Of a DNA stretch of 64,000 nucleotides, positions 5,118 through 40,942 are shown piece by piece. This stretch comes from an uncultured Candidatus Saccharibacteria bacterium (GTDB lineage Bacteria; Patescibacteriota; Minisyncoccia; Phycocordibacterales; UBA2100). The DNA lies in contig CAYNRJ010000001.1 in the NCBI GenBank assembly GCA_964399865.1, positions 475,984-539,983 of the forward strand. Reading direction: 5' to 3'. The position numbers were made by a program, and so were the translations under genes. The notes under the pieces are model-generated. The model was not told the origin of the DNA and ran no database searches. It was given only the letters and a program-made list of their open reading frames with translations. Every line of letters starts with the position of its first letter. Positions within the stretch are counted from its first letter, which is position 1.

Positions 5118-5254
5118 ACGTAGTAAAAAACTTAGTCTTTAAATAATGATTTTAGTGTAGCACTGGATGAGACGTGCGAGCGGCCAACTTCTTTCCGTTG
5201 CATATCTCCGATTTCGTGGTTAAGTATTCGAAGTCAGAACGCCAGGAGGGCACG

Positions 5255-6037
5255 ATGACAGAAACGTTGAGCATTGAGGCTGCCGAGTCAGATCTGAAGC
5301 AGATTTGGGGACGCATCTACGGCCTCTTATATGGACGAATCGGGTCCAGCACGTTCGAGACGTGGTGTAGGTCCCTCGACTTCCACTCGCGCCAGGGTGC
5401 GACGGTATATTTGTCCGTCCCCACGCGATCGCTGCGTCATTGGATTGCCGGGCATTACGTTTCCGACCTCCTCGACTTGTGGAAGGAGTACGGGATCGAG
5501 AAAGTGGAGATAGTGCTGCGGGGCGTTGAACGCGCTCCCCCGGCGCCACAGATCGAAAAGCCGCGCCGAGTTCCGAGACGAGGAGTCATGTCGAGAGTGG
5601 CTCTAGAGGACCCGCCAAGCGAGCGAGAGGACACAGAAGTACGGGCACGGAAGCCCGCCCGGACTATCGCGAATCGGGACCTGCCGAAGCTCCCGCTCCT
5701 GCCGTCACTCGCGGCCGAGGAGATCGCCGGACTGCGGCAGAGGTACCCTGAGCGCTTTACGATCGATAACGTAGCGAACAAGGTGGCGGCCGCGTTCAAA
5801 ACGACGGAACTGGACATGATCCATCGCAACGAGCAGATCATGCTGCTCGCTCTTCGCATCACCATGCTGATCGCAGTCGAGTTACTGGGGATGGATAAGC
5901 GAGATGTTGCGGACGCACTCCGCATCAACTACATGCGCGTGGCATCTGGACTGAGCCACCTCGAGCGACAGATCACGGCGAATCCGCCCCTGCAGGACGT
6001 GATCGACCGACTGAAGGTGTTCATCCTCCGCGGCTAG
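5255..6037 (+). CDS. DnaA-like protein with an N-terminal domain-I-like region and a C-terminal domain-IV (DnaA box-binding HTH) but no AAA+ ATPase domain
   Basis: ORF 5174..6037 trimmed to MTETLS (strong SD 'aggaggg' 8 nt upstream). N-term 'FETWCRSLDF...VYLSVPTRSLRHWIAGHYVSDLLDLW' resembles DnaA_N. C-term 'FTIDNVANKVAAAF...IMLLALRITMLIAVELLGMDKRDVADALRINYMRVASGLSHLERQI' resembles DnaA domain IV. No Walker A/B. Local GC about 57-58 %. Confidence 0.55.
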   Translation: MTETLSIEAAESDLKQIWGRIYGLLYGRIGSSTFETWCRSLDFHSRQGATVYLSVPTRSLRHWIAGHYVSDLLDLWKEYGIEKVEIVLRGVERAPPAPQIEKPRRVPRRGVMSRVALEDPPSEREDTEVRARKPARTIANRDLPKLPLLPSLAAEEIAGLRQRYPERFTIDNVANKVAAAFKTTELDMIHRNEQIMLLALRITMLIAVELLGMDKRDVADALRINYMRVASGLSHLERQITANPPLQDVIDRLKVFILRG

Positions 6038-7219: not shown

Positions 7220-7225
7220 AAGGCG

Positions 7226-7972
7226 TTATTTTAATGCATCGAGGAGCGCACCAAATTCTGATGCGTGGATACTCGCACGACCGACAAGAAAGCCCGACGT
7301 GTCGCCGTGCGCGAGCATCGCAACTGCGTTCGTTGAATCTACTGAACCTCCATATAAAATTTTCATTTTGTGTCCGATCTCACCATGCAATTCAACAACA
7401 GTTTTGCGTATAAAAATTGCCATCTCATGCATGTCCCTTGGAGCCATCGCGGTCGCTCCCCCAATCGCCCAGAGCGGTTCGTACGTGACGATCACGCGAT
7501 TCACTCGAGCAGAAACATCAGTGAGACCGACACGTAATTGTTCACGAACGATCCCAAAATGTTCTGCGCCTTGGGTCCGTACTTTTTCACCGACGCACAG
7601 AATAGGAATTAGTTTCGTAAAAAGTGCGGCCGTTACTTTTCTTCGAGTATCATCATTTGATTCCCCCATCTCCCTCCTTTCCGCATGACCGATTATGACG
7701 TAGGAAGCTCCTGCCTCTTTTGCTTGTTGCATTGAGATCTCCCCTGTATGAGCTCCGCTTGGTTCAAAATGTGCGTTCTGCGCTGCAAATAAGACTTTTC
7801 CTCCGCGAATTTCTTTCGCGAGCTGACGTAGATACAGAGCAGGCGGAGCAACGACAATCGTCGTATGACTAGCCATACTCGCGAGATGCTTCGTCTCTTC
7901 AAGGAGTCGCTTTGCTTCTCGCCACGAGGGAGGGTTCATCTTCCAGTTCGCGACCACAAGCGATTTTGCCAT
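7226..7972 (-). CDS. tpiA: Triosephosphate isomerase
   Basis: ORF 7226..8284 trimmed to 'MAKSLVVANWKMNP'; 'GHAERR', 'YEPLWAIGG' TIM signatures; 249 aa matches TIM length. The upstream 105-codon extension crosses intergenic repeat A and is taken as spurious. Confidence 0.85.
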   Translation of the reverse strand: MAKSLVVANWKMNPPSWREAKRLLEETKHLASMASHTTIVVAPPALYLRQLAKEIRGGKVLFAAQNAHFEPSGAHTGEISMQQAKEAGASYVIIGHAERREMGESNDDTRRKVTAALFTKLIPILCVGEKVRTQGAEHFGIVREQLRVGLTDVSARVNRVIVTYEPLWAIGGATAMAPRDMHEMAIFIRKTVVELHGEIGHKMKILYGGSVDSTNAVAMLAHGDTSGFLVGRASIHASEFGALLDALK

Positions 7973-8024
7973 TGCCGCGATTGTACCATGCTGCTTCTTC
8001 CCTACCTCAAGCGAGGGACGATGC

Positions 8025-8103
8025 CTCTTGAGGGTCTTCGCAGGCGCGGCGGCGCCGAGACCGAGCGCTGCGCCAGCAGGCGCAGATAGCGACCCGAAAG
8101 AGG
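8025..8103. repeat. GC-rich ~80-nt intergenic element, copy A (second copy at 13253-13333)
   Basis: Direct repeat with about 4 mismatches over ~75 nt; 5' CCTCTT pairs with 3' AAGAGG, forming the terminal stem; lies between tpiA and the PilX-like gene. Confidence 0.7.
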
Positions 8104-8117
8104 TATCGTTCCAAGCG

Positions 8118-13151: not shown

Positions 13152-13252
13152 TCAATTAATTATAGCGCGCAAAATCTCAAAGAAATGTCTGATGCAAAAT
13201 AAATGTGCAAACATTGAAATGCATTTTCAAATTCAAAAGCGAGGGGTACTGC

Positions 13253-13350: not shown

Positions 13351-15120
13351 CTATTCAGAAATAACGCGGAGCACCTCTTCAATCGAAGTAAGGCCTTGTG
13401 CTGCTTTGAAGATTCCGTCTTCTGCCATTGTGAGCATCCCTTCGCTCTTCGCTTGCTTCTCGACTTCCGCCGCAGTTGCACTCTTCATCACGAGCTCTCG
13501 AATGGTTGGAGTGACTGATAGAATTTCGTAAATACCCTTTCGTCCTGCGTATCCTGTTGGACTTTGCGCACTTTCCTTTGGACGATAGAACGGTACGTTT
13601 TTCCATGTCGCATCTTTTGAAACAACTTTTTCTTCCTTGAGCGCACGAAGAACCGCACCTGTATCTATCATCTTTTCTAAATGAGCCTGCTCGTCGCGCG
13701 AGAGTTCGTACTTCTCTTTCTCGGGAGTAAGGACTCGCACAAGACGCTGACCAATTGCGATGCGGAGAGTTGAGACCAAGAGAAATGGCTCGACTCCCAT
13801 ATCTAGTAGACGCGGTATAGCTCCCGCAGCGGAGTTCGTGTGGAGTGTCGAGAGGACGAGGTGACCTGTGAGGGCGGCGTTAATAGCAAGAGAGGCAGTC
13901 TCCTTATCGCGGATTTCTCCCACCATCACGATGTCTGGGTCCTGACGCACGAGAGAGCGGAGACCGTTGGCAAATGTGAATCCGATCTCAGGACGAACTT
14001 GCGTCTGATTTATTCGTTTCATCTGGTATTCGATAGGATCCTCGATCGTTGAGATGTTTACGTTCGGCGTATTTACGATATCGAGGAGCGTGTAGAGCGT
14101 CGTTGATTTACCAGCGCCTGTCGGACCACAGGCGAGCACCATTCCTGTCGTTGCGCGCATCGCTTCGTGCATGCGATCGAGTCCTACCCCATGAATACCT
14201 ATAGATTCCAATGTGAAACCTGAGATCGAGTCCCGCAGGAGTCGCATGACGATTTTCTCTCCGTAATACGTTGGAAGGACAGAAACACGGAACGAAATTT
14301 TCTCGCCAGCGGACTCTGCTCCGAAACGTCCGTCCTGTGGCAGGCGATGCTCGTCGAGACGCATGCTCGCTAACACTTTTATGCGCGCAGTGATCGCGGC
14401 GGCAGCATGCTTCGGCAGCTCCATTGCGTCGTGAAGAATGCCGTCGATGCGGTAGCGTATAAGTAGAGCGGTTTCCATCGGCTCAATATGTATATCTGAT
14501 GCACCTTGGGCATTCGCGTGACGGATAAGAGTATCAACGACACGCACCGCCGACGCACCCTCAGCCATCTGACGGAGGTCTTCTTCTTTTGTCGGCGCTC
14601 CTCCTTTCTCAAGTGCGGCCATTTCGCGCTCGATCACAGAGCCAAGATTATCCTTGAGCCCCTGCTGATACTGCTTCAGCGCGTATTTGATACTCGCATC
14701 ATCCGTAAGACGTGGGAGGATCTTGAGCCGTGTCTTCTTTTTTATGAAATCGATCGCGGCAAGATCATCGGTATCAAGCATCGCAACCTCAAGCTCATCG
14801 CCGCGGTGACTGTACGCGATGATGTTGTTACGTCGTGCGATAGGCTCGGGAACTAAAGAAAGTGTTTCGTATTTGATGTCAGTTCCCGTGAGAGCGACGA
14901 AAGGAATTCCGAGAATGTACGCGTACGTTCGGCGGAGTTCATCCTCCCCTATTACATTGTGCGCCTTTAAAATGTCGCCAACTGGTTTACCAGATTCTTT
15001 TGCCTCTTTTTCTGCGCTATCAAATGCTTTTGCAGAAACTAACCCTGCATCAGAGAGAAATGATTTGAGATGAGTGTCGCTTATATACATAGCGCTGGTT
15101 TCATTAAAAGTATACCTCAT
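13351..15120 (-). CDS. pilB: Type IV pilus assembly ATPase PilB (GspE family) with N-terminal GSPII_E_N domain
   Basis: 589 aa; Walker A 'GPTGAGKSTT', 'DIVMVGEIRD' Walker B/Asp box, His box, C-terminal tetracysteine-like region. Confidence 0.85.
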   Translation of the reverse strand: MRYTFNETSAMYISDTHLKSFLSDAGLVSAKAFDSAEKEAKESGKPVGDILKAHNVIGEDELRRTYAYILGIPFVALTGTDIKYETLSLVPEPIARRNNIIAYSHRGDELEVAMLDTDDLAAIDFIKKKTRLKILPRLTDDASIKYALKQYQQGLKDNLGSVIEREMAALEKGGAPTKEEDLRQMAEGASAVRVVDTLIRHANAQGASDIHIEPMETALLIRYRIDGILHDAMELPKHAAAAITARIKVLASMRLDEHRLPQDGRFGAESAGEKISFRVSVLPTYYGEKIVMRLLRDSISGFTLESIGIHGVGLDRMHEAMRATTGMVLACGPTGAGKSTTLYTLLDIVNTPNVNISTIEDPIEYQMKRINQTQVRPEIGFTFANGLRSLVRQDPDIVMVGEIRDKETASLAINAALTGHLVLSTLHTNSAAGAIPRLLDMGVEPFLLVSTLRIAIGQRLVRVLTPEKEKYELSRDEQAHLEKMIDTGAVLRALKEEKVVSKDATWKNVPFYRPKESAQSPTGYAGRKGIYEILSVTPTIRELVMKSATAAEVEKQAKSEGMLTMAEDGIFKAAQGLTSIEEVLRVISE

Positions 15121-15160
15121 TGAATCTCTCTATCTTTTTCCACATGGCATACTAGTGGGT

Positions 15161-16459
15161 ATGTACGAAGGACCTGAGAAATCTTTTCCAAAGAAGACCG
15201 GGAAAGAGCACTTGCGAGGCCTTCCGAAAGTAGGTGTCCGAGGCATCGTCAGTAAAGTCGCCTCTCCTCTCTTACTTAAAGCGATTAATAAACATCGAGA
15301 AAAGGCTGCAAAAGCCCTCAAGGAGGGCCAGCGTTTCCCGGACCAATCGGAGCGGGCGCTTATTGATGCCGTTAACGAGATGCTTGCAGGAGAATTCGCT
15401 CGCTTAAGGCGCACGTCGGAAGGCATGGGACGTTACGAACCTTTGCAATATGAACAGGTTCACGTCGTGAGTGGAACTGAGGCGCTTGGAGAAGATTTTT
15501 TCTCGAAGACATACGGTCTCCACCACTCACTTACAGATGTCATTACCCTCGCAGAAAAGACAGAGCTAGAAAGTAAACTCCACTTCCTCACGCATGAGGC
15601 GGTGCATTCCTCGGCATTTGTAACTCACGGTGTCACCCCCCCTTGGGGTTCCAAGGAAAGGAAGAAAGCCGATATGAGTTCGCGAAGCGGATACAACATC
15701 GATGACGCTCGGCAGCGCGGCATGCTCTCCGCCTCAGACGGATCATTTTTGAGCTTTAATGAAGCCGTCGTCGAATCTATCACCCAGAGATTGCTCGCGC
15801 AGCATGCGCAAAAGCTTGCGGGCATCATTCCGAGCATCGATCTACAGAAATTACTACAAGCCGGCGAAAATACATATCGAACTGAGCGCAAAATCCTCGA
15901 CGTATTCATTGAAGAGACGGCAAAAAGAACAGGGGAGGACACCTCTCTCATACGCGAGCGAATTGAGCGGGAGCATTTTGGCGGACACATGATGCACATT
16001 CGCACCATCGAACGCGCCTGCGGCGAGAATTCCGTACTATTACTCTCTCTCTTTAACGGGTACTTTTCGAACAAAGAGGAAGCCCCGGAGCAAGTTAGAC
16101 AATTTTTAGCGACTCCAGTCCCTCGAAAGCGCTATCGCCTCGCGCGATCAATACTCCTAATTGATGATTTTGCCGACTATGTCGAACGAGCTGATTGGAG
16201 AAGCATACGTGCATTTTTGCGACGTCCTCTGCCCACTATGAAAGATGGGGGGTTCGAACGGGATTCCCGGGATACCATCGAGCGGATATATGCAAAACTT
16301 CAGGCCGTAGAGGTGCTAATGGATGGGGAAGTAAGAAAATCGGATGAGCTATTCCGAGCTGTTCGCAACGATGAAGCCGAGGTAATGTCTAAAGTCCGAG
16401 CCTACGAAGCCGTCTTTGGACCAATCGAGCTGCCCGAGCGCCCCTTGCTTGACTTTTAA
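15161..16459 (+). CDS. Hypothetical cytoplasmic protein with an HExxH (HEAVH) motif
   Basis: ORF 15074..16459 trimmed to MYEGPEK to avoid overlap with the pilB start; 'LTHEAVHSSAF' could be a zinc-metallopeptidase-like motif; no other recognisable domain. Confidence 0.4.
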   Translation: MYEGPEKSFPKKTGKEHLRGLPKVGVRGIVSKVASPLLLKAINKHREKAAKALKEGQRFPDQSERALIDAVNEMLAGEFARLRRTSEGMGRYEPLQYEQVHVVSGTEALGEDFFSKTYGLHHSLTDVITLAEKTELESKLHFLTHEAVHSSAFVTHGVTPPWGSKERKKADMSSRSGYNIDDARQRGMLSASDGSFLSFNEAVVESITQRLLAQHAQKLAGIIPSIDLQKLLQAGENTYRTERKILDVFIEETAKRTGEDTSLIRERIEREHFGGHMMHIRTIERACGENSVLLLSLFNGYFSNKEEAPEQVRQFLATPVPRKRYRLARSILLIDDFADYVERADWRSIRAFLRRPLPTMKDGGFERDSRDTIERIYAKLQAVEVLMDGEVRKSDELFRAVRNDEAEVMSKVRAYEAVFGPIELPERPLLDF

Positions 16460-16549: not shown

Positions 16550-17815
16550 ATGGCACTTTTTGACCTCAAATCATTGAATTCAGCCCTCGACGAGCTCCAG
16601 CAGGAGCGCGGCATCTCGCGCGATAGCGTTGTGGATGCTCTCGCAACTGCACTCGCAGCCGCATACCGCCGTGAGTACGGAAAGCGCGGTCAAATCATTC
16701 GCGCAACCTTTAATCCTCAGACGGGCGACATGGAATTCCGTCAGGCAAAGATCGTCGTCGACAAGACTCTTGTTCGCGGTGAAGACGAGGAAGCAACAGG
16801 CGATGACGATCATCGCTCACGCTTCAATCCAGAACAGCACATCATGATCGAAGACGCTCGCCGCATTAAAAAGGATGCAGAGCTCGACGAAGAGATCTCC
16901 TTCCCACTCGAAACCCAAGAGGATTTCGGCCGTATCGCAGCTCAGGCCGCAAAACAGGTCATCATGCAGAAAGTCCGCGAAGCGGAGCGTGCATCCATCA
17001 TTTCTGAGTACGGTCAGCGCGAAGGCGAGATCGTCACCGGTCACGTGCAGCGCTTTGAACGCGGCAATCTCTATGTAGACCTCGGCCGCGCTACCGCTAT
17101 CCTCCCCTACGACGAACAGATCCCGGGCGAGAGATACCGACAAGGTGAGCGTGTGCGCGCACTCCTTCTCCGTGTTGACGAAGGACTTCGCGGCACATTC
17201 ATCCGCCTCACTCGCTCTCATCCGCGCTTCCTCGTGAAGCTTTTCGAGACTGAAGTTCCAGAAATGGCAAACGGTATCGTTGAAGCAAAGGGCGTCGTAC
17301 GCGAGCCAGGTAGCCGCGCTAAGATCGCGGTGCACTCTAAAGACGAACACGTTGATCCTGTGGGAGCTCTCGTTGGTCAGCGCGGTGTCCGCGTTGCCGT
17401 TGTGACTTCAGAACTTGGCGGAGAGAAGATCGACGTCATTGAATGGTCTGAGAATACTGGCGATTTCGTCAAAGAAGCCTTGAAGCCAGCGCAGGTTCTC
17501 AGCATCGAACTTCACGAAGACGAGAGTCGCGCAGTGGTTACAGTTGCCGAAGACCAGCAGTCTCTTGCGATTGGTCGCGGAGGCCAGAACGTGCGTCTCG
17601 CCGCTCGTCTCACAGGATGGAAGATTGATATCCGTTCAAATGGTGGCGAACAAGTTGCCGCTGCGGAAGCTGCAGGAGACGTAAAAGTCATGGAGAAAAC
17701 TGAAGAAAAGCTTGCGGATATTGCCGAATTAAAAGGTGAGATGGAAGACGAGATGGATGCAGCTGTTCCAACTCCAGCAGAAGAAAAACCTGCAGAAGAG
17801 CCTACAAAAGAATAA
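16550..17815 (+). CDS. nusA: Transcription termination/antitermination factor NusA
   Basis: 421 aa; NusA N-terminal domain, S1 domain ('GEIVTGHVQRFERGNLYVDLG'), two KH domains, acidic C-terminal tail. Confidence 0.9.
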   Translation: MALFDLKSLNSALDELQQERGISRDSVVDALATALAAAYRREYGKRGQIIRATFNPQTGDMEFRQAKIVVDKTLVRGEDEEATGDDDHRSRFNPEQHIMIEDARRIKKDAELDEEISFPLETQEDFGRIAAQAAKQVIMQKVREAERASIISEYGQREGEIVTGHVQRFERGNLYVDLGRATAILPYDEQIPGERYRQGERVRALLLRVDEGLRGTFIRLTRSHPRFLVKLFETEVPEMANGIVEAKGVVREPGSRAKIAVHSKDEHVDPVGALVGQRGVRVAVVTSELGGEKIDVIEWSENTGDFVKEALKPAQVLSIELHEDESRAVVTVAEDQQSLAIGRGGQNVRLAARLTGWKIDIRSNGGEQVAAAEAAGDVKVMEKTEEKLADIAELKGEMEDEMDAAVPTPAEEKPAEEPTKE

Positions 17816-17836
17816 ACGTTTGTATTAAAAGTCTTT

Positions 17837-17874
17837 GCGATGCGCGCGCCTCAGGTGCGCGCATCGCTTTTTTG
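17837..17874 (+). terminator. Rho-independent terminator downstream of nusA
   Basis: GCGATGCGCGCGCC-tcag-GTGCGCGCATCGC stem followed by TTTTTT. Confidence 0.8.
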
Positions 17875-17899
17875 GATCGCCCCTCGGAAGAAATCCACC

Positions 17900-18304
17900 T
17901 CATTCCCTCGCAGCTCGCCTAGCTTTACGCTCCGCTTCCGCTGCTAACTCGAGCTTCCTCTCGTCAGCCATGAGGGACAATTCGCTTGTCGTACTGATTG
18001 CCGCCCCGATCCCATAACCGACGCCGAGCAGCACCACATTCACCACCCCGAGGACAAGAAGAGAAACCTCGACTGGGGGCTCGGCAGCCCAAACACCGAT
18101 CGCAGCCCAAGTAGTGCAGACAGCGTTAGTTACCGCCAAGAGGATGACCGCAGACCACCACTTCAATCGCGATGGCGCGCCCTTCCTCAATTTCTTGGCG
18201 CTCGTACTTTCGCTCGGATCAGCACGCCTTGCATACTGCCTTGCGTACCAGAAGCCGATAGCTAATGCCGCGACGAACATCACTGCATGCGGGAGAAAAT
18301 TCAT
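17900..18304 (-). CDS. Small membrane protein (3 predicted helices, charged C-terminal tail) in a high-GC islet
   Basis: ORF 17900..18355 trimmed to MNFLPHAVMFVAALAIGFWY; local GC about 58 %, well above the flanking genes. Confidence 0.45.
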   Translation of the reverse strand: MNFLPHAVMFVAALAIGFWYARQYARRADPSESTSAKKLRKGAPSRLKWWSAVILLAVTNAVCTTWAAIGVWAAEPPVEVSLLVLGVVNVVLLGVGYGIGAAISTTSELSLMADERKLELAAEAERKARRAARE

Positions 18305-18380
18305 TGGGCGATCCTCCGTGTGCCTACCAACAGCAAACACTCTTCCTCGATTCACGTCAATCTGCTACACTCTCAGGCAT

Positions 18381-18917
18381 ATGAATCTTTGGCACGATAT
18401 ACCACTCGGCGATAACGCTCCGGAAGAATTTAATGCGATCATCGAGATCCCAAAAGGGAGTCCTAATAAGTATGAGGTGGATAAAGAAACAGGTCTCATT
18501 AAGCTCGACCGAGCCAACTATTCCTCTGCTCCATACCCATTCGATTACGGATTTGCTCCACAAACGTACTGGGAAGATAAAGACCCACTCGATGTCATCG
18601 TTCTCACCACGTTCCCTCTCGCACCAGGCATCCTTGTCACAGTCAGACCCGTTGCTGTCATCGACATGGTTGATGATGGTGATTCTGACTACAAGATCAT
18701 CGCGGTTCCTGTAAATGACAGACGCTGGGACGATGTGCGCGAACTCAAAGACCTCAATAAACATGCTCTCAAGGAATATCAGCACTTTTTCGAGACCTAT
18801 AAGCAGCTTAAGGGTAAGCCTGCCCCTGTAGAGATCCGCGGCATACTAGGAAAAGATGAGGCAATCGCAGCGGTAAAGAAATCGGTGAAGCTCTACAAGG
18901 AGAAATTCAACAAATAA
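18381..18917 (+). CDS. ppa: Inorganic pyrophosphatase (family I)
   Basis: ORF 18114..18917 trimmed to MNLWHDIP; 'NAIIEIPKGSPNKYE', 'DPLDVIVL', 'DGDSDYKIIAVPV' PPase signatures; 178 aa. Confidence 0.85.
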   Translation: MNLWHDIPLGDNAPEEFNAIIEIPKGSPNKYEVDKETGLIKLDRANYSSAPYPFDYGFAPQTYWEDKDPLDVIVLTTFPLAPGILVTVRPVAVIDMVDDGDSDYKIIAVPVNDRRWDDVRELKDLNKHALKEYQHFFETYKQLKGKPAPVEIRGILGKDEAIAAVKKSVKLYKEKFNK

Positions 18918-19042
18918 GCCTGTTTTCTGGATGTCCCCAAAGGGTAATAAGGAGCTGAATTGAACGTCATATAGGGTGTAGGATAAACACTGTATTTCAG
19001 GAGTTTCTCCTTATTACCATTAGATATCTCAATTCAATACAT

Positions 19043-19819
19043 ATGCAATTAACACTACAGCGGACGCTTCTTGTTGCCTTAGGTGTATTACTCATTGCCT
19101 TCGGGACCGTAAGCTTCGCCCACGCAGAGGATGATGCAACGGTGCAGGTTTCTGCAGAGACAACCGTACAGGTAGACGTGCGTACTGCGACAGGGACCCC
19201 TCCGAAGTTTCGTCCTGGCGCACCATTCCAAAACAAACAGCTAAAAGAGTTCAAAGAAAACGCAAAAGATGCAATTAAAGATGTCTCGGCAAAAGCACGA
19301 ATCGAGATGAGAGCAGCAAGTTCTTCAGGAGAGAAAAAGAACATCATGGAGAACCTCCGTGAGAAAAAAGAAGACTTAAAGAATGATCGTAAGGAAAAGA
19401 TGCAAAGCTTTAAGGAGCGCATTCAATTATTGGCACGAACGCACATCGGCGCGTCGATAAACCGCTTCACTGCAGCCATCAACCACTTCGAGAATATCGC
19501 GGAACGAATTGAGTCCCGCATCGATAAGCTTAACGATCGCGGCATCAATACCGTTAACGTCGAAGCTTCTCTTAAAACAGCAGTCGATCTCACGGCAACA
19601 GCTAAAGCGGACGTCGCCGCACTCAAGACTCTCCTAAATTCCGTAACTGACACAAGTGATCCTGCTACAGTAAAGGCTCAGATCCGCGCTGCTATCGAGA
19701 AAGCAACGGCAAGCATAAAGGCTGCGCACCAGGCTCTTATGAAAACCGCTCGGGAGCTCTCCGCGCTCGTGCGTGCCTCTGGAGGAATCAACAGTACAAC
19801 TACAGTTGACGTGCAATAA
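19043..19819 (+). CDS. Secreted coiled-coil protein, unknown function
   Basis: Signal peptide 'MQLTLQRTLLVALGVLLIAFGTVSFAHA'; Lys/Glu/Ala-rich helical body. Confidence 0.55.
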   Translation: MQLTLQRTLLVALGVLLIAFGTVSFAHAEDDATVQVSAETTVQVDVRTATGTPPKFRPGAPFQNKQLKEFKENAKDAIKDVSAKARIEMRAASSSGEKKNIMENLREKKEDLKNDRKEKMQSFKERIQLLARTHIGASINRFTAAINHFENIAERIESRIDKLNDRGINTVNVEASLKTAVDLTATAKADVAALKTLLNSVTDTSDPATVKAQIRAAIEKATASIKAAHQALMKTARELSALVRASGGINSTTTVDVQ

Positions 19820-19838
19820 GTAGGGTACAATATCCTTC

Positions 19839-20189
19839 ATGGAGCAGGCACCGTACACCTCGCCAATCGATCCAGTTCCTAACACCGAACCCGTATCGAA
19901 GTCATCTGCCGGGCCCGTGATCGGAGCAGTTATCGTCATCATAATTCTAGCTCTCGGGGGATTGTATTTCTGGGGAGCAGAGTTGAATGAAGGTCCTGCA
20001 GAACAGCTTCCATTCATTCCAGGAGATGACGGAGCCGTAGTGGAGAGCGAGAGTGATGCCGCGTGGCTTCCCCCTTCAAATGATTCTGATGACGCAGCAG
20101 CGATAGAGGCAGAGCTTGAGGCGACCAACATGAGCGCCTTCGAGAACGAAACTAACGCAGACATGAGTGCAGCTGAATCAAGCTTCTAA
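19839..20189 (+). CDS. Small membrane-anchored protein with an acidic C-terminal tail
   Basis: One TM segment 'GPVIGAVIVIIILALGGLYFWG' then a Glu/Asp/Ala-rich tail. Confidence 0.45.
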   Translation: MEQAPYTSPIDPVPNTEPVSKSSAGPVIGAVIVIIILALGGLYFWGAELNEGPAEQLPFIPGDDGAVVESESDAAWLPPSNDSDDAAAIEAELEATNMSAFENETNADMSAAESSF

Positions 20190-20207
20190 CAAACATCGTA
20201 TTTCAAG

Positions 20208-20244
20208 AAACGCCCGAGGCTATTTTGCCTCGGGCGTTTCGTTT
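20208..20244 (+). terminator. Rho-independent terminator
   Basis: AAACGCCCGAGGC-tatttt-GCCTCGGGCGTTT followed by a T-rich tract. Confidence 0.75.
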
Positions 20245-20258
20245 GCTATGCTCTCGCG

Positions 20259-21326
20259 ATGACACATGACATCAAGAACGTAAAAGTCACCAGGGATGAG
20301 AAGAACTGGGAGGCTGAGATCACAGGAGAGATCCCGGCAGAGGTGCTTAGCAACTATCGCACTGAAACCCTAAAAGAGATGCAGAAGACTGCAAAGCTCG
20401 ACGGCTTCAGGCCGGGTATGGCACCACTCGATCGCATTATCGCGATATACGGCGAGGGAGAGATACTTAAACATGCTGCGGAACACGCGATTCAGCATGA
20501 ATTACCAGAACTTCTTGCTACAGAGAAGATCCTCGCGATCGAAGCTCCTCACGTCACGATCGGAGTCCCTGAAGCTGGTAAACCCCTCCCCTTTACCGCT
20601 CGTGCAGCTCTCGCACCAAAAGTAGAACTTCCTGATTTCAAAAAGATTGCAAAGAAATATCCAGCTCCTGAAAAATCCGAAGTCTCAGATGCCGAGCATC
20701 AAGAAGCTCTCACGCATCTTCGCCGCGAGCGCGCACGCATAGAAAGAATGGAAACTGGCGTGGAGCCAGAAAAGGCCGCGGAGGAGTCGAAAAAGATAGA
20801 GGAAAAAGATCTACCAGCTCTTGATGACGCATTTGTGCAATCTCTCGGCTATGAAAACGCTGAAGCGTTCTCAAATGCACTCCGAGAAAACATTCAAAAG
20901 GAGAAAGACACGCAGGCGCGTGACAAGCGTCGCCAAGGAATTCTGGATGAGCTTGTTAAGGAAGCAAAGATCTCCTACCCAACACTTCTTCGTGAATATG
21001 AATTGAATGACATGGAAGCGCGCCTCCGCGAAGATTTGAGCAGAATAAATCACACGCTTGAACAATACCTTGGTGAAATCAAAAAGACTCGTGAGGCCAT
21101 TAGAGAGGAGTGGAAAGATGCGGCAGATAAGCGCACAAAGATTCGATTAGTGCTTACAGAAATTGCCCGAAAAGAAAACATCGATGCGCCTGCTGAGGAA
21201 CTCGCACACCAAATGGATCATGCAAAGAAACGCTTCCCAGAAGCAGAGGAAGATATGCTTCGAGCGAACATCGCTCACGCAATGAGGAATGAGGCGGTTC
21301 TAAATTTCCTAGAGTCGATCAAGTAA
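20259..21326 (+). CDS. tig: Trigger factor, short form (the PPIase domain appears reduced or absent)
   Basis: N-terminal ribosome-binding domain with 'KLDGFRPGMAPLDRI' (the GFRxGxxP signature); 355 aa versus about 430 aa canonical; a clpP gene follows after an inserted islet. Confidence 0.6.
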   Translation: MTHDIKNVKVTRDEKNWEAEITGEIPAEVLSNYRTETLKEMQKTAKLDGFRPGMAPLDRIIAIYGEGEILKHAAEHAIQHELPELLATEKILAIEAPHVTIGVPEAGKPLPFTARAALAPKVELPDFKKIAKKYPAPEKSEVSDAEHQEALTHLRRERARIERMETGVEPEKAAEESKKIEEKDLPALDDAFVQSLGYENAEAFSNALRENIQKEKDTQARDKRRQGILDELVKEAKISYPTLLREYELNDMEARLREDLSRINHTLEQYLGEIKKTREAIREEWKDAADKRTKIRLVLTEIARKENIDAPAEELAHQMDHAKKRFPEAEEDMLRANIAHAMRNEAVLNFLESIK

Positions 21327-21357
21327 AGGAAGCTCCTGATAGCTCTTAGGAGTTTCA

Positions 21358-21756
21358 CTAGATAAGACCGAAGCCGATAGCAGCTAAATACCCTCCCAAA
21401 ACTACGGCCATAAAGCCGCCGGAGATATACCACTGCGATTTGTTAAACATTCGTATGAGGCGACGCATCCCTGCAAATGGGAGCGAGATGTAGATAATGC
21501 TCTCTAAGATCATGAGCCAACCCATGAGTGTAATCAGTCCTCGCCAATCTGGTGTCCAAATCGGGTGTGCTATTGCGATCGCGAGACCACCCATCAATTC
21601 AACAAGAGCAATTATTAAAATAAGTGCTCTGTTATCGATAAATTCATACACAACTGGTATGAGAGATTTCCGGCGATACATGATGATAAGGCCGGCGATC
21701 AAAAAATAGAGTCCGAGTAATTGCGCAAGAAAAATTGAGAGATCATCCATGTGCAC
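21358..21756 (-). CDS. Integral membrane protein (4 predicted helices), unknown function
   Basis: 132 aa, strongly hydrophobic. Confidence 0.5.
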   Translation of the reverse strand: MHMDDLSIFLAQLLGLYFLIAGLIIMYRRKSLIPVVYEFIDNRALILIIALVELMGGLAIAIAHPIWTPDWRGLITLMGWLMILESIIYISLPFAGMRRLIRMFNKSQWYISGGFMAVVLGGYLAAIGFGLI

Positions 21757-21929
21757 TAGTCTATACTCCTTCGTGCAAAAAATAGGTTTTTATTTTATTA
21801 CTTGTGGATAAAAACGTTTCCACAAGCCTTAACTCGTCACCTTCTCCCATACGGAGGGAGATATTTAAAACAAGAAGCCGCCCACACTATAGAAGTGTCG
21901 CACTGAGCGGACTTCCTTGTGGTGAGCGG

Positions 21930-22247
21930 CTAGCGCTTGATGGCTTCGAGTCGATTCCATTCCTCGGTGAGAGCGAGGGCTATTTTGGCCCGGACCTTTG
22001 GCGACTGACCGATTGCCATACTGACCATGAGGCAGTAGTCGGCCTGGTCACTACGCTCCATCTTGAACTCGGCTTCGGGAGCCACCTGAGCAGCGATCAC
22101 CTCCATCTGCGCATAGGTCTGAGGCGCGTTGAGGCGAGCTGTCTTGAGTTCACCTCCTGGGTACGTGTCGGTGAGAAACCAGCGCGACCTCTTCTTGCGA
22201 TCAATTCCCTTCCACCGCCAGTCATAACTAAGCTTCAAATTCCGCAC
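21930..22247 (-). CDS. Hypothetical small protein in a high-GC islet
   Basis: 105 aa; GC about 58 %; no recognisable motif. The overlapping plus-strand ORF 21804..22394 looks like low-complexity noise. Confidence 0.35.
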   Translation of the reverse strand: MRNLKLSYDWRWKGIDRKKRSRWFLTDTYPGGELKTARLNAPQTYAQMEVIAAQVAPEAEFKMERSDQADYCLMVSMAIGQSPKVRAKIALALTEEWNRLEAIKR

Positions 22248-22432
22248 GGCTTACCTCCCGATTTGAGCGGCCAATACAATACATCATCCTTCCCCATTGG
22301 GGAAGGCCGCAAAAGGTACGTCATCCAAGGAGGGAGAATTGGTCGGTTCTTAAAGCCTTTGCGAACAAGAACCCCGCGTCAAACCATTATTTGACCCATC
22401 TTTTATACTGACGTAGATTATCGGCGGCGCAA

Positions 22433-22708
22433 TTGTGCTGCCTGATGGAGGAAGTCGTGACTGAGCGCCTGGATAAGCGGCATAGCAAGATGGTCGATGG
22501 GCTCGTCAAAAGCCTCAAGAAGCGGAGACTCATCAAGAAGATCCTCCACAAGCAAGGACTCACGGTCCCGGAACCGCCCCCAACTATCGTTGGAATGGTT
22601 CAGCAGGACTACGACCTCTTCAAGTTCAAGGAGCTCGTGGAGAATCTGGCAACCCTGACAATCAAGCGACTCCGCGATGCTCTACAGATGGAGCGAGTTC
22701 CTGGTTGA
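22433..22708 (+). CDS. Hypothetical small basic protein in a high-GC islet
   Basis: 91 aa (possibly about 72 aa from MVDGL); Lys/Arg-rich; followed by a terminator-like hairpin. Confidence 0.35.
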   Translation: MCCLMEEVVTERLDKRHSKMVDGLVKSLKKRRLIKKILHKQGLTVPEPPPTIVGMVQQDYDLFKFKELVENLATLTIKRLRDALQMERVPG

Positions 22709-22746
22709 CTGCCCATTCTACTTAACCGTCCGTTCGAGAACGAAAG

Positions 22747-22790
22747 GTCGCCCTTCGCTCCTCGTCGGGCGGCTTTCGTTTTTTGCTCTT
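22747..22790 (+). terminator. Putative rho-independent terminator at the end of the high-GC islet
   Basis: GTCGCCC...GGGCGGC stem (one G:U pair) followed by TTTCGTTTTTT. Confidence 0.4.
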
Positions 22791-22834
22791 CTGCCAATGT
22801 AGACATCATATTTACGTCATCATTTGCGCGAGAA

Positions 22835-23452
22835 ATGAAAATTGATACACTGCGCCCTATGAATACTCCAACTGCTCAGATGCTTGTGCCAATGGTTATA
22901 GAGAAAACCTCTATGGGCGAACGCGCCTATGACATTTACTCGCGTCTTCTTAAGGAACGCATTATTTTCCTTGGAGGACCGATAGACAGCGACGTTGCGA
23001 ACCTCGTCATCGCTCAACTCCTCTTCCTCCAGTCAGAAGATCCGAAAAAAGATATCTCTTTCTACATTAACTCCCCTGGTGGACACGTATCTGCAGGTCT
23101 CGCCATCCTCGACACCATGAATCACATCCAGCCGAACGTATCTACTGTATGTGTCGGTATGGCAGCTTCTATGGCAGCAATTCTTCTTTCCGCGGGAGAG
23201 AAGGGAAAGCGCTTTGCCCTTCCAAACGCTGAAGTGATGATCCACCAGCCATCAGGCGGCGCTGAAGGAATGGCATCAGATATTGAAATAACGGCAAAAC
23301 AGATATTGAAACTCCGCGAACGCCTAAATAAGATACTCGCCAAGAACACTGGCCAGAAAGTTGAGAAAATTGCGGAGGATGTAGACCGTGATTTCTTCAT
23401 GGATGCTGCAGAAGCAGTGAAATACGGCATTGTGGATAAGGTTCTAAGCTAG
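22835..23452 (+). CDS. clpP: ATP-dependent Clp protease proteolytic subunit ClpP
   Basis: '[33 protein letters not shown]', 'INSPGG', catalytic Ser/His/Asp context ('GMAASMAA'); the true start may be an internal Met (22859 or 22880). Confidence 0.9.
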
Positions 23453-29696: not shown

Positions 29697-29717
29697 ACAC
29701 GATGCTAAAATGCCGTC

Positions 29718-40521: not shown

Positions 40522-40563
40522 GGAAACTTGTCGTCTGTACTCTATCGCTGATAGAATACTCCT

Positions 40564-40923: not shown

Positions 40924-40942
40924 GCTAGGGTACAATCGTGGT

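Follow-up and report, generated by a model that had tools for sequence, protein, structure and literature searches.

Genes acquired by horizontal transfer gather in hotspots between core genes, and many of these hotspots lack a recognisable mobile element (Oliveira, Touchon, Cury and Rocha 2017, PMC5635113). We describe here two islets that resemble such sites, found in a 64,000-nucleotide (nt) stretch of DNA (hereafter the window, meaning the whole of the DNA analysed; 49.3% GC) from a Candidatus Kaiserbacteria-like genome of the Candidate Phyla Radiation (CPR; Parcubacteria). Islet 1, at about positions 17816-18323, lies between nusA and ppa and contains one membrane-protein gene (mem134) with a terminator. 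Islet 2, at about 21812/21829-22828, lies between tig and clpP and contains two divergent genes for small basic proteins (orf105 and orf83/87/91), each with its own terminator. Our analysis indicates that each islet is probably a small cassette, complete in itself, whose DNA is foreign and was acquired recently; the two occupy variable slots of a conserved housekeeping row. As in the described hotspots, the intervals lie between core genes, their cargo varies among relatives, composition is atypical and no integrase or transposase is present. In contrast, the relatives compared here are different species and genera, all within an uncultured lineage of the CPR, rather than strains of one species, the cargo is tiny (0.5-1 kb), the flanks show no recombination tract, and the cargo differs from its host in the mode of translation initiation.

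Three further kinds of system come close to parts of this arrangement. Type II toxin-antitoxin pairs are co-directional, co-transcribed operons. Such operons, exemplified by a MazE/AbrB-Doc pair in one related locus (L015), share with islet 2 the two small genes, the setting of an acquired islet and the same chromosomal slot, whereas the islet 2 genes are divergent, carry their own terminators, match no family and have no recognisable antitoxin fold. The cI/cro-type repressor pairs of temperate phages likewise consist of two small divergent genes around a shared control region of ~200 bp, but islet 2 contains no helix-turn-helix (HTH) domain, has no phage homologue and has no neighbouring phage genes. 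Finally, CPR genomes are rich in hypothetical proteins. The orphan genes of CPR/Patescibacteria resemble those of the islets in encoding short proteins with no homologue or domain within a small, streamlined genome; unlike them, the islet genes differ from their own genome in GC content at third codon positions (GC3) and in having a Shine-Dalgarno (SD) site, which argues for import rather than local origin. The islets are of an ordinary kind and add only new members to it.

To place the islets among relatives, 60 related loci were retrieved from GTDB genomes and Joint Genome Institute (JGI) metagenomes using the trigger factor (Tig) of the window. The closer loci are labelled Candidatus Kaiserbacteria, Paceibacterota or Parcubacteria, with a top Tig identity of 66-69%. 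Searches of these loci with window proteins (tblastn) reveal a conserved row that runs from pilB (- strand) through nusA, ppa, orf258, orf116, tig, in some cases mem130 (- strand), clpP, rny and hup to orf410. The backbone gene on the left flank of islet 1, nusA (16550-17815, +; Pfam domains NusA_N, S1 and KH), is 81-90% identical to most close relatives. No homologue of the three islet open reading frames (ORFs) was found in any of the 60 Kaiserbacteria loci, even at E <= 10. In the closest relative (L007), nusA and ppa lie 52 bp apart and mem130 and clpP about 110 bp apart; this locus is simply shorter by ~0.5 kb and ~1.0 kb at the positions of the two islets.

Inspection of both slots reveals a wide range of contents. 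The tig-clpP spacer varies from 40 to 5449 bp and holds at least ten kinds of cargo among relatives; in 13 of 44 loci tig and clpP are direct neighbours, 40-144 bp apart, which is the uninterrupted arrangement that the earlier note had suggested looking for. The nusA-ppa spacer varies from 52 to 1369 bp in the 23 loci that have both genes, with at least four kinds of cargo. Contents of the tig-clpP slot include an ECF-type sigma factor with a DUF5667 protein, a FIST protein, a GNAT protein, a MazE/AbrB-Doc pair, RsmE and several orphans. Cargo of the sigma/DUF5667 or FIST type occupies L012 (9043-10796), L016 (9113-10890) and L036 (7318-12403); the sigma factor, DUF5667 and FIST proteins were identified by scanning, and the FIST protein adjoins ORFs that by eye resemble a putative sensor kinase and receiver. 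In L015 (9150-9789, +), a MazE/AbrB-type antitoxin of 79 amino acids (aa) is followed co-directionally, after a 7-nt gap, by a Fic/Doc toxin of 130 aa. Contents of the nusA-ppa slot include a NUDIX protein, a homoserine-dehydrogenase-like protein and small orphans. Different cargo in different relatives points to ordinary genome plasticity, and the two slots may act as core-gene-flanked transfer hotspots with rapid turnover of cargo. A third variable slot was seen between pilB and nusA, where the window has an ORF of 432-461 aa (15074-16459, +) with a host-like GC3 of 0.50; it has no Pfam match and no tblastn match in L007-L023, and pilB and nusA are 130 bp apart in L007.

Across the junctions of islet 2, contigs of separate assemblies, drawn from five or more sequencing runs, match the window at 100%, and the gene order nusA, mem151, ppa is found on contigs of four sequencing runs. 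Identical junctions and gene order in independent assemblies exclude an assembly artefact. Ten contigs from other runs, inspected for population variation as a gauge of selection, were all 100% identical.

The earlier note had drawn attention to the islets as stretches of ~58% GC. In 300-nt windows (standard deviation 3.5%), the 95th and 99th percentiles of GC content are 55.3% and 58.7%, respectively. Islet 1, delimited as 17835-18355, has 57.6% GC with a 300-nt maximum of 59.7%, and the left half of islet 2 (21821-22340) alone attains 58.7%, the 99th percentile; islet 2 as originally delimited (21760-22800) has just 52.3%, such that the figure holds for islet 1 and for half of islet 2 only. 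Raw GC also fails to set islet 1 apart because the adjoining nusA gene (54.5% GC overall) peaks equally high, at 59.7% (16791-17450). GC3, not raw GC, is the real compositional anomaly of the islets. The 48 backbone genes of the window, used as the reference set, have a GC3 of 0.472 +/- 0.037 with a maximum of 0.596, in contrast to 0.627 for mem134, 0.686 for orf105 and 0.701 for orf87, the 87-aa reading of orf83/87/91. Of windows of equal length taken from the backbone genes, at most 0.1% reach these values. The codon-usage comparison proposed earlier thus separates all three islet ORFs (0.63-0.70) from the backbone, and high GC is not uniform among small or membrane genes, since mem130 (0.48), orf116 (0.51) and HU (0.44) are ordinary.

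The change in GC3 is abrupt. In each flanking gene, values drop sharply to normal within the 50 codons next to the islet; the flanking 50-codon windows of ppa (0.46), mem130 (0.36) and clpP (0.50) are host-like, and the last 75 codons of nusA, at 0.36-0.42, are normal for the genome. No imported high-GC3 tract is present in the flanking 50-codon windows, and recombination via the conserved flanks is unsupported given their host-like GC3. Kaiserbacteria relatives with 52-58% GC have a backbone GC3 of 0.61-0.75; the islet values resemble these, and the composition therefore fits a donor of that type.

A second signal accompanies the first. Each of the three islet ORFs has GGAGG 4-8 nt ahead of its start, and SD sites are present at 3 of 3 islet ORFs versus 2 of 48 backbone genes (Fisher p = 5e-4). 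Many backbone genes of the window instead show a -10-like hexamer (TATAAT, TACAAT, TACACT or similar), the end of which lies 6-9 nt ahead of the start codon, as at 13152-13170 (-), 18366-18380 (ppa), 19820-19838, 20243-20258 (tig), 22845-22858 (clpP), 29700-29717, 40545-40563 and 40925-40942. Among relatives, an SD-like site occurs at 1 of 82 backbone starts, and a -10 box, placed 6-9 nt upstream, at 17 of 18 tig starts and 7 of 8 orf116 starts. Since SD sites are rare and the hexamer stands so close to the start, the backbone of the Kaiserbacteria lineage appears to be expressed predominantly from leaderless mRNAs; our literature search found no paper combining leaderless mRNAs with Parcubacteria. 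At least six cargo ORFs in the slots of relatives are likewise led by SD sites. Taken together, absence from the 60 loci, the short spacers of L007, GC3 and SD usage support the recent horizontal insertions that had been proposed for both islets.

Within islet 1 lies a strong intrinsic terminator behind nusA (17837-17873, +), comprising a 14-bp G+C-rich hairpin (17837-17867) followed by T6. It folds at -30.1 kcal/mol (z = -4.3) and has its T run on the plus strand only; it has no counterpart in L007, where ppa begins about 44-52 nt past nusA. The end of mem134 lies 33 nt from this hairpin. As the earlier note described, mem134 (17900-18304, -) is a 134-aa ORF on the opposite strand of the nusA-ppa gap, predicted to encode an orphan membrane protein with a pI of 9.7. 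Its hydropathy profile displays three hydrophobic segments (residues 3-21, 51-72 and 74-105) and a charged C-terminal tail; it may be an accessory inner-membrane protein. The SD motif GGAGG (18313-18317, -) lies 8 nt upstream of its ATG. The right edge of islet 1 is marked by the region upstream of ppa (18324-18380, +), which is conserved: 43-47 nt are 79-84% identical in L052, L060, L037, L038 and L040, the -10-like TACACT (18366-18371) ends 9 nt ahead of the ATG at 18381, and TACACT-N7-9-ATG precedes ppa in relatives too. A perfect 9-nt inverted repeat, GGATCGCCC (17874-17882) and GGGCGATCC (18306-18314), encloses the mem134 ORF with almost no margin; chance alone would give ~0.8 pairs of this kind over a region that long.

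Islet 2 does not fill the tig-clpP interval by itself. On the tig side lies mem130 (21358-21750, -), a conserved membrane gene with four transmembrane segments that counts as backbone in some of the relatives, shows 70-75% identity in L007, L009, L018, L024 and others, and is outside the insertion. The earlier placement of the islet between tig and clpP is correct in position, with this conserved gene added on its left. Within the islet, orf105 (21930-22247, -) is predicted to encode, from a GTG start after GGGAGGT, a soluble orphan protein of 105 aa with a basic pI of 9.7. Its terminator (21867-21930, -) is a hairpin right after the stop codon, followed by CUUCUUGUUUU; it folds at -27.7 kcal/mol (z = -4.5), an energy equalled by none of 200 shuffles, and its orientation suits the minus strand only. 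The starts of orf105 and of its divergent partner lie 197-209 nt apart on the - and + strands, respectively. The control region between them (22248-22456) contains a sigma-70-like TTGACC-17-TAGATT (22391-22419, +) and hairpins at 22288-22306 and 22345-22373.

The second gene, orf83/87/91 (22457-22708, +), is predicted to encode an orphan soluble basic protein with a pI of 10.1. Its longest reading gives 91 aa from 22433, with alternatives at ATG 22445 (87 aa) and GTG 22457 (83 aa); the latter, with GGAGGA ahead of it, is the most likely start on sequence grounds. The earlier description of two divergent ORFs of 105 and 91 aa accordingly stands for the ORFs and their divergence, with the second more likely 83 or 87 aa in length. 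The predicted structure of the protein consists of two long helices linked by PEPPP. Near the right end of the islet, the terminator that had been noted there was recovered as a hairpin (22736-22783) plus T run (22736-22790, +) at -25.4 kcal/mol. The gene calls of some public contigs contain a 196-aa plus-strand ORF (21804-22394) in place of orf105, and NCBI-derived records include mem151 and the 87-aa protein while orf105 is absent from them. We rejected the 196-aa ORF as an antisense shadow, as it scores -0.068 bits/aa in amino-acid composition and would read through the minus-strand terminator. An Rfam scan of 21700-22900 at E <= 1 gave no match, leaving a non-coding RNA in the G+C-rich stretch unsupported; in the window as a whole, Rfam at the gathering score finds four tRNAs only.

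The right edge of islet 2 is formed by the core promoter of clpP (22831-22858, +), TTTGCG-N16-TACACT-N8, directly before ATG 22859. Most of the 24 listed relatives have a TTTGCR-N~17-TACACT-N7-8-ATG arrangement ahead of clpP, and the homologues begin with MNTP; we therefore place the clpP start at ATG 22859 (MNTPTAQ...) rather than at ATG 22835, the choice of the gene caller. The possibility that insertion split the clpP -35 element from its -10 element was rejected, as an alignment of the clpP upstream regions of 24 relatives places the complete, undamaged promoter on the right-hand side of the islet. Each cassette lies immediately before an intact promoter, that of the backbone gene which follows it (ppa or clpP). 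With these promoters intact and terminators present, the neighbouring genes appear undisturbed.

The left junction of islet 2 is marked by a perfect 8-bp inverted repeat (21801-21826), CTTGTGGA-N10-TCCACAAG, with arms at 21801-21808 and 21819-21826, a 10-nt loop and a folding energy of -10.9 kcal/mol. No T run follows it on either strand, and it is therefore not a terminator. One perfect DnaA box (21803-21811) lies within the repeat. A counterpart of the left arm, CCTGTGGAAAG, which includes the DnaA-box-like TGTGGA, occupies the same place in L007 and L024, both of which lack the islet. It follows that the repeat is no insertion scar: the repeat and the box do stand at the left junction, as had been reported, whereas the notion that they bound the inserted DNA in this sense does not hold. 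The box itself is not conserved in L007 and L024, where TGTGGAAAG has two mismatches. A second perfect box, TTATCCACA, lies at 23431-23439 (-) inside the 3' end of clpP, giving two in the window versus 0.28 expected (1 of 100 shuffles reaches two).

Searches for relatives of the three islet proteins, which had been called for to characterise them, detected none in any database searched. Pfam, NCBIfam and PADLOC (cut-off E <= 0.1-1) and PHROGs (best E >= 0.2) gave no match. In a search of 5.8 billion clusters, mem134, orf105 and orf87 each matched only themselves, and an exhaustive phmmer search over 1.84 billion representatives, run for orf105 only, returned just the self-match. IMG/VR, phage records and plasmid records held no match, and the best PDB sequence hits did not improve on E > 0.6. 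These searches show the predicted islet genes to be lineage-specific orphans. AlphaFold2 models of orf105 and orf87/83 are of low confidence, with predicted local distance difference test (pLDDT) scores of 59 and 64, respectively; fold searches with them were uninformative (BFVD best E >= 0.14). No HTH, ribbon-helix-helix (RHH) or AbrB domain was recognised in the islet 2 proteins, and the low-confidence models show no such fold. A resemblance of the orf105 N-terminus to the arm-type DNA-binding domain of tyrosine integrases was considered and dropped, as Pfam gave no support.

The leading, though tentative, reading of islet 2 is that orf105 and orf83 are a pair of small nucleic-acid-binding regulators that share the ~200-bp divergent control region. 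A rival reading, in which islet 2 is the remnant control region of a prophage or plasmid, with a cI/cro-like divergent repressor pair, intergenic operators and the rest of the element lost, is unlikely. The divergent layout around a control region with a sigma-70-like promoter and hairpins, the small size and basic character of both proteins, and the foreign-looking composition and SD usage are all in keeping with it, yet the proteins contain no HTH or other repressor domain, match nothing in PHROGs, IMG/VR or phage records, and have tig, mem130 and clpP as neighbours, in a vicinity free of integrases, att-like repeats and other phage genes. Two repeated motifs, CTTGTGG (4x in 750 nt) and TACGTCATC (2x), were rejected as operators, since a 1.2-kb region yields ~2.7 nine-mer repeats by chance and the repeats are within that expectation. 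Further in favour of such an origin, another high-GC3 islet of the window (5174-6037, +) encodes a DnaA_N-domain protein, a type linked with mobile replicons. This segment is the top compositional outlier of the window, with 59% GC, a GC3 of 0.73 and a 300-nt peak of 64.7%, and is probably the first islet of the earlier note's series; the only recognisable part of its 287-aa protein is a DnaA N-terminal domain (PF11638, E = 1e-11, residues 43-105).

Rather improbable is the view that nothing was inserted at all, with the islets representing compositional noise or non-functional DNA in which chance frames in G+C-rich spacers, or decaying pseudogenes, mimic genes. It draws on the raw GC values, at which islet 1 does not exceed the local peaks of nusA and islet 2 as first delimited has only 52.3%, on the lack of any homologue among billions of proteins, and on the disagreement of gene callers over the strand at 21804-22394. 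Against this, GC3 periodicity in the islets falls in the top 0.1% of backbone windows, each ORF has a correctly spaced GGAGG, and the terminators agree with the ORF orientations. The amino-acid composition is that of real genes: mem134, orf105 and orf83/87 score +0.139, +0.118 and +0.149 bits/aa, respectively, such that all three (+0.12 to +0.15) are in the range of real genes (mean 0.15 bits/aa) and exceed the 0.019 that marks the 95th percentile for shadow frames. L007, furthermore, lacks ~0.5 kb and ~1.0 kb at these positions.

The earlier note had likened the two-gene layout to toxin-antitoxin or phage-regulatory cassettes, a comparison not borne out by divergent genes with separate terminators, no family or phage match and no integrase. 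It is doubtful that orf105 and orf83 form a new self-contained two-gene system (a regulatory switch, defence or addiction module) of no described family, mobile among Kaiserbacteria of the CPR and with its own SD-dependent expression in a leaderless host. Islet 2 is highly unlikely to be a toxin-antitoxin or other two-gene addiction or defence module in which one protein is toxic or abortive and the other neutralising, and the chance that orf105 and orf83 in particular are toxin and antitoxin is slim at best. Two adjacent small genes in an acquired islet, the basic character of both proteins (pI 9.7 and 10.1) and the true MazE/AbrB-Doc pair of L015, which demonstrates that such modules land in this slot, speak for it; the islet 2 genes, however, are divergent at ~200 bp with their own terminators, where those of L015 run in the same direction 7 nt apart, and Pfam, NCBIfam and PADLOC give no match, no antitoxin DNA-binding domain is recognisable and fold searches are uninformative. 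The weakest proposal, that the inverted repeat is a replication origin or DnaA-controlled promoter to which the islet is linked, is extremely improbable: two perfect DnaA boxes in the window, both near clpP, where 0.28 are expected window-wide, and an A+T-rich stretch at 21770-21800 favour it, but the site has a single box and no cluster, cumulative GC skew has no turning point there, the box is not kept in L007 or L024, neither dnaA nor dnaN is nearby, and a lone DnaA box gives no evidence of an origin.

Several points weigh against our preferred interpretation of recently acquired cassettes. No donor was found and the three proteins have no detectable relative, so that the term foreign depends on composition, translation signal and absence from relatives. 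With the nearest Tig identity at 66-69%, the term recent cannot be dated, and gain here is not formally separable from repeated loss elsewhere. Neither an integrase nor a transposase domain was found in the islets, nor were terminal repeats or a target duplication; the only repeats around them are of 9 nt and at chance level (~0.8 expected in islet 1), the flanks contain no recombination tract, and the route of integration is a guess, the best being illegitimate or micro-homology recombination of DNA that was taken up. The three islet ORFs are predicted genes, known from their sequence, and with structure models at pLDDT 59 and 64 any functional guess would be weak.

Two further features of the window were recorded. 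The trigger factor gene (20259-21326, +) encodes just 355 aa, with Trigger_N at residues 8-153 and Trigger_C at 202-331; Pfam detects no peptidyl-prolyl isomerase (PPIase; FKBP) domain between them, and Tig is of equal length in relatives. A supposed gap at 7220-8117 was rejected, as this segment is tpiA.

The interpretation of the islets as acquired cassettes offers no new mechanism; in practice it is of use to annotation and to work on gene flow in the CPR. GC3 and the SD site form a simple marker pair for recent imports in these organisms, whose genomes are apparently leaderless. CPR genomes are tiny and thought to be streamlined; the islets suggest that even the most conserved housekeeping row of such a genome has slots through which foreign genes come and go.

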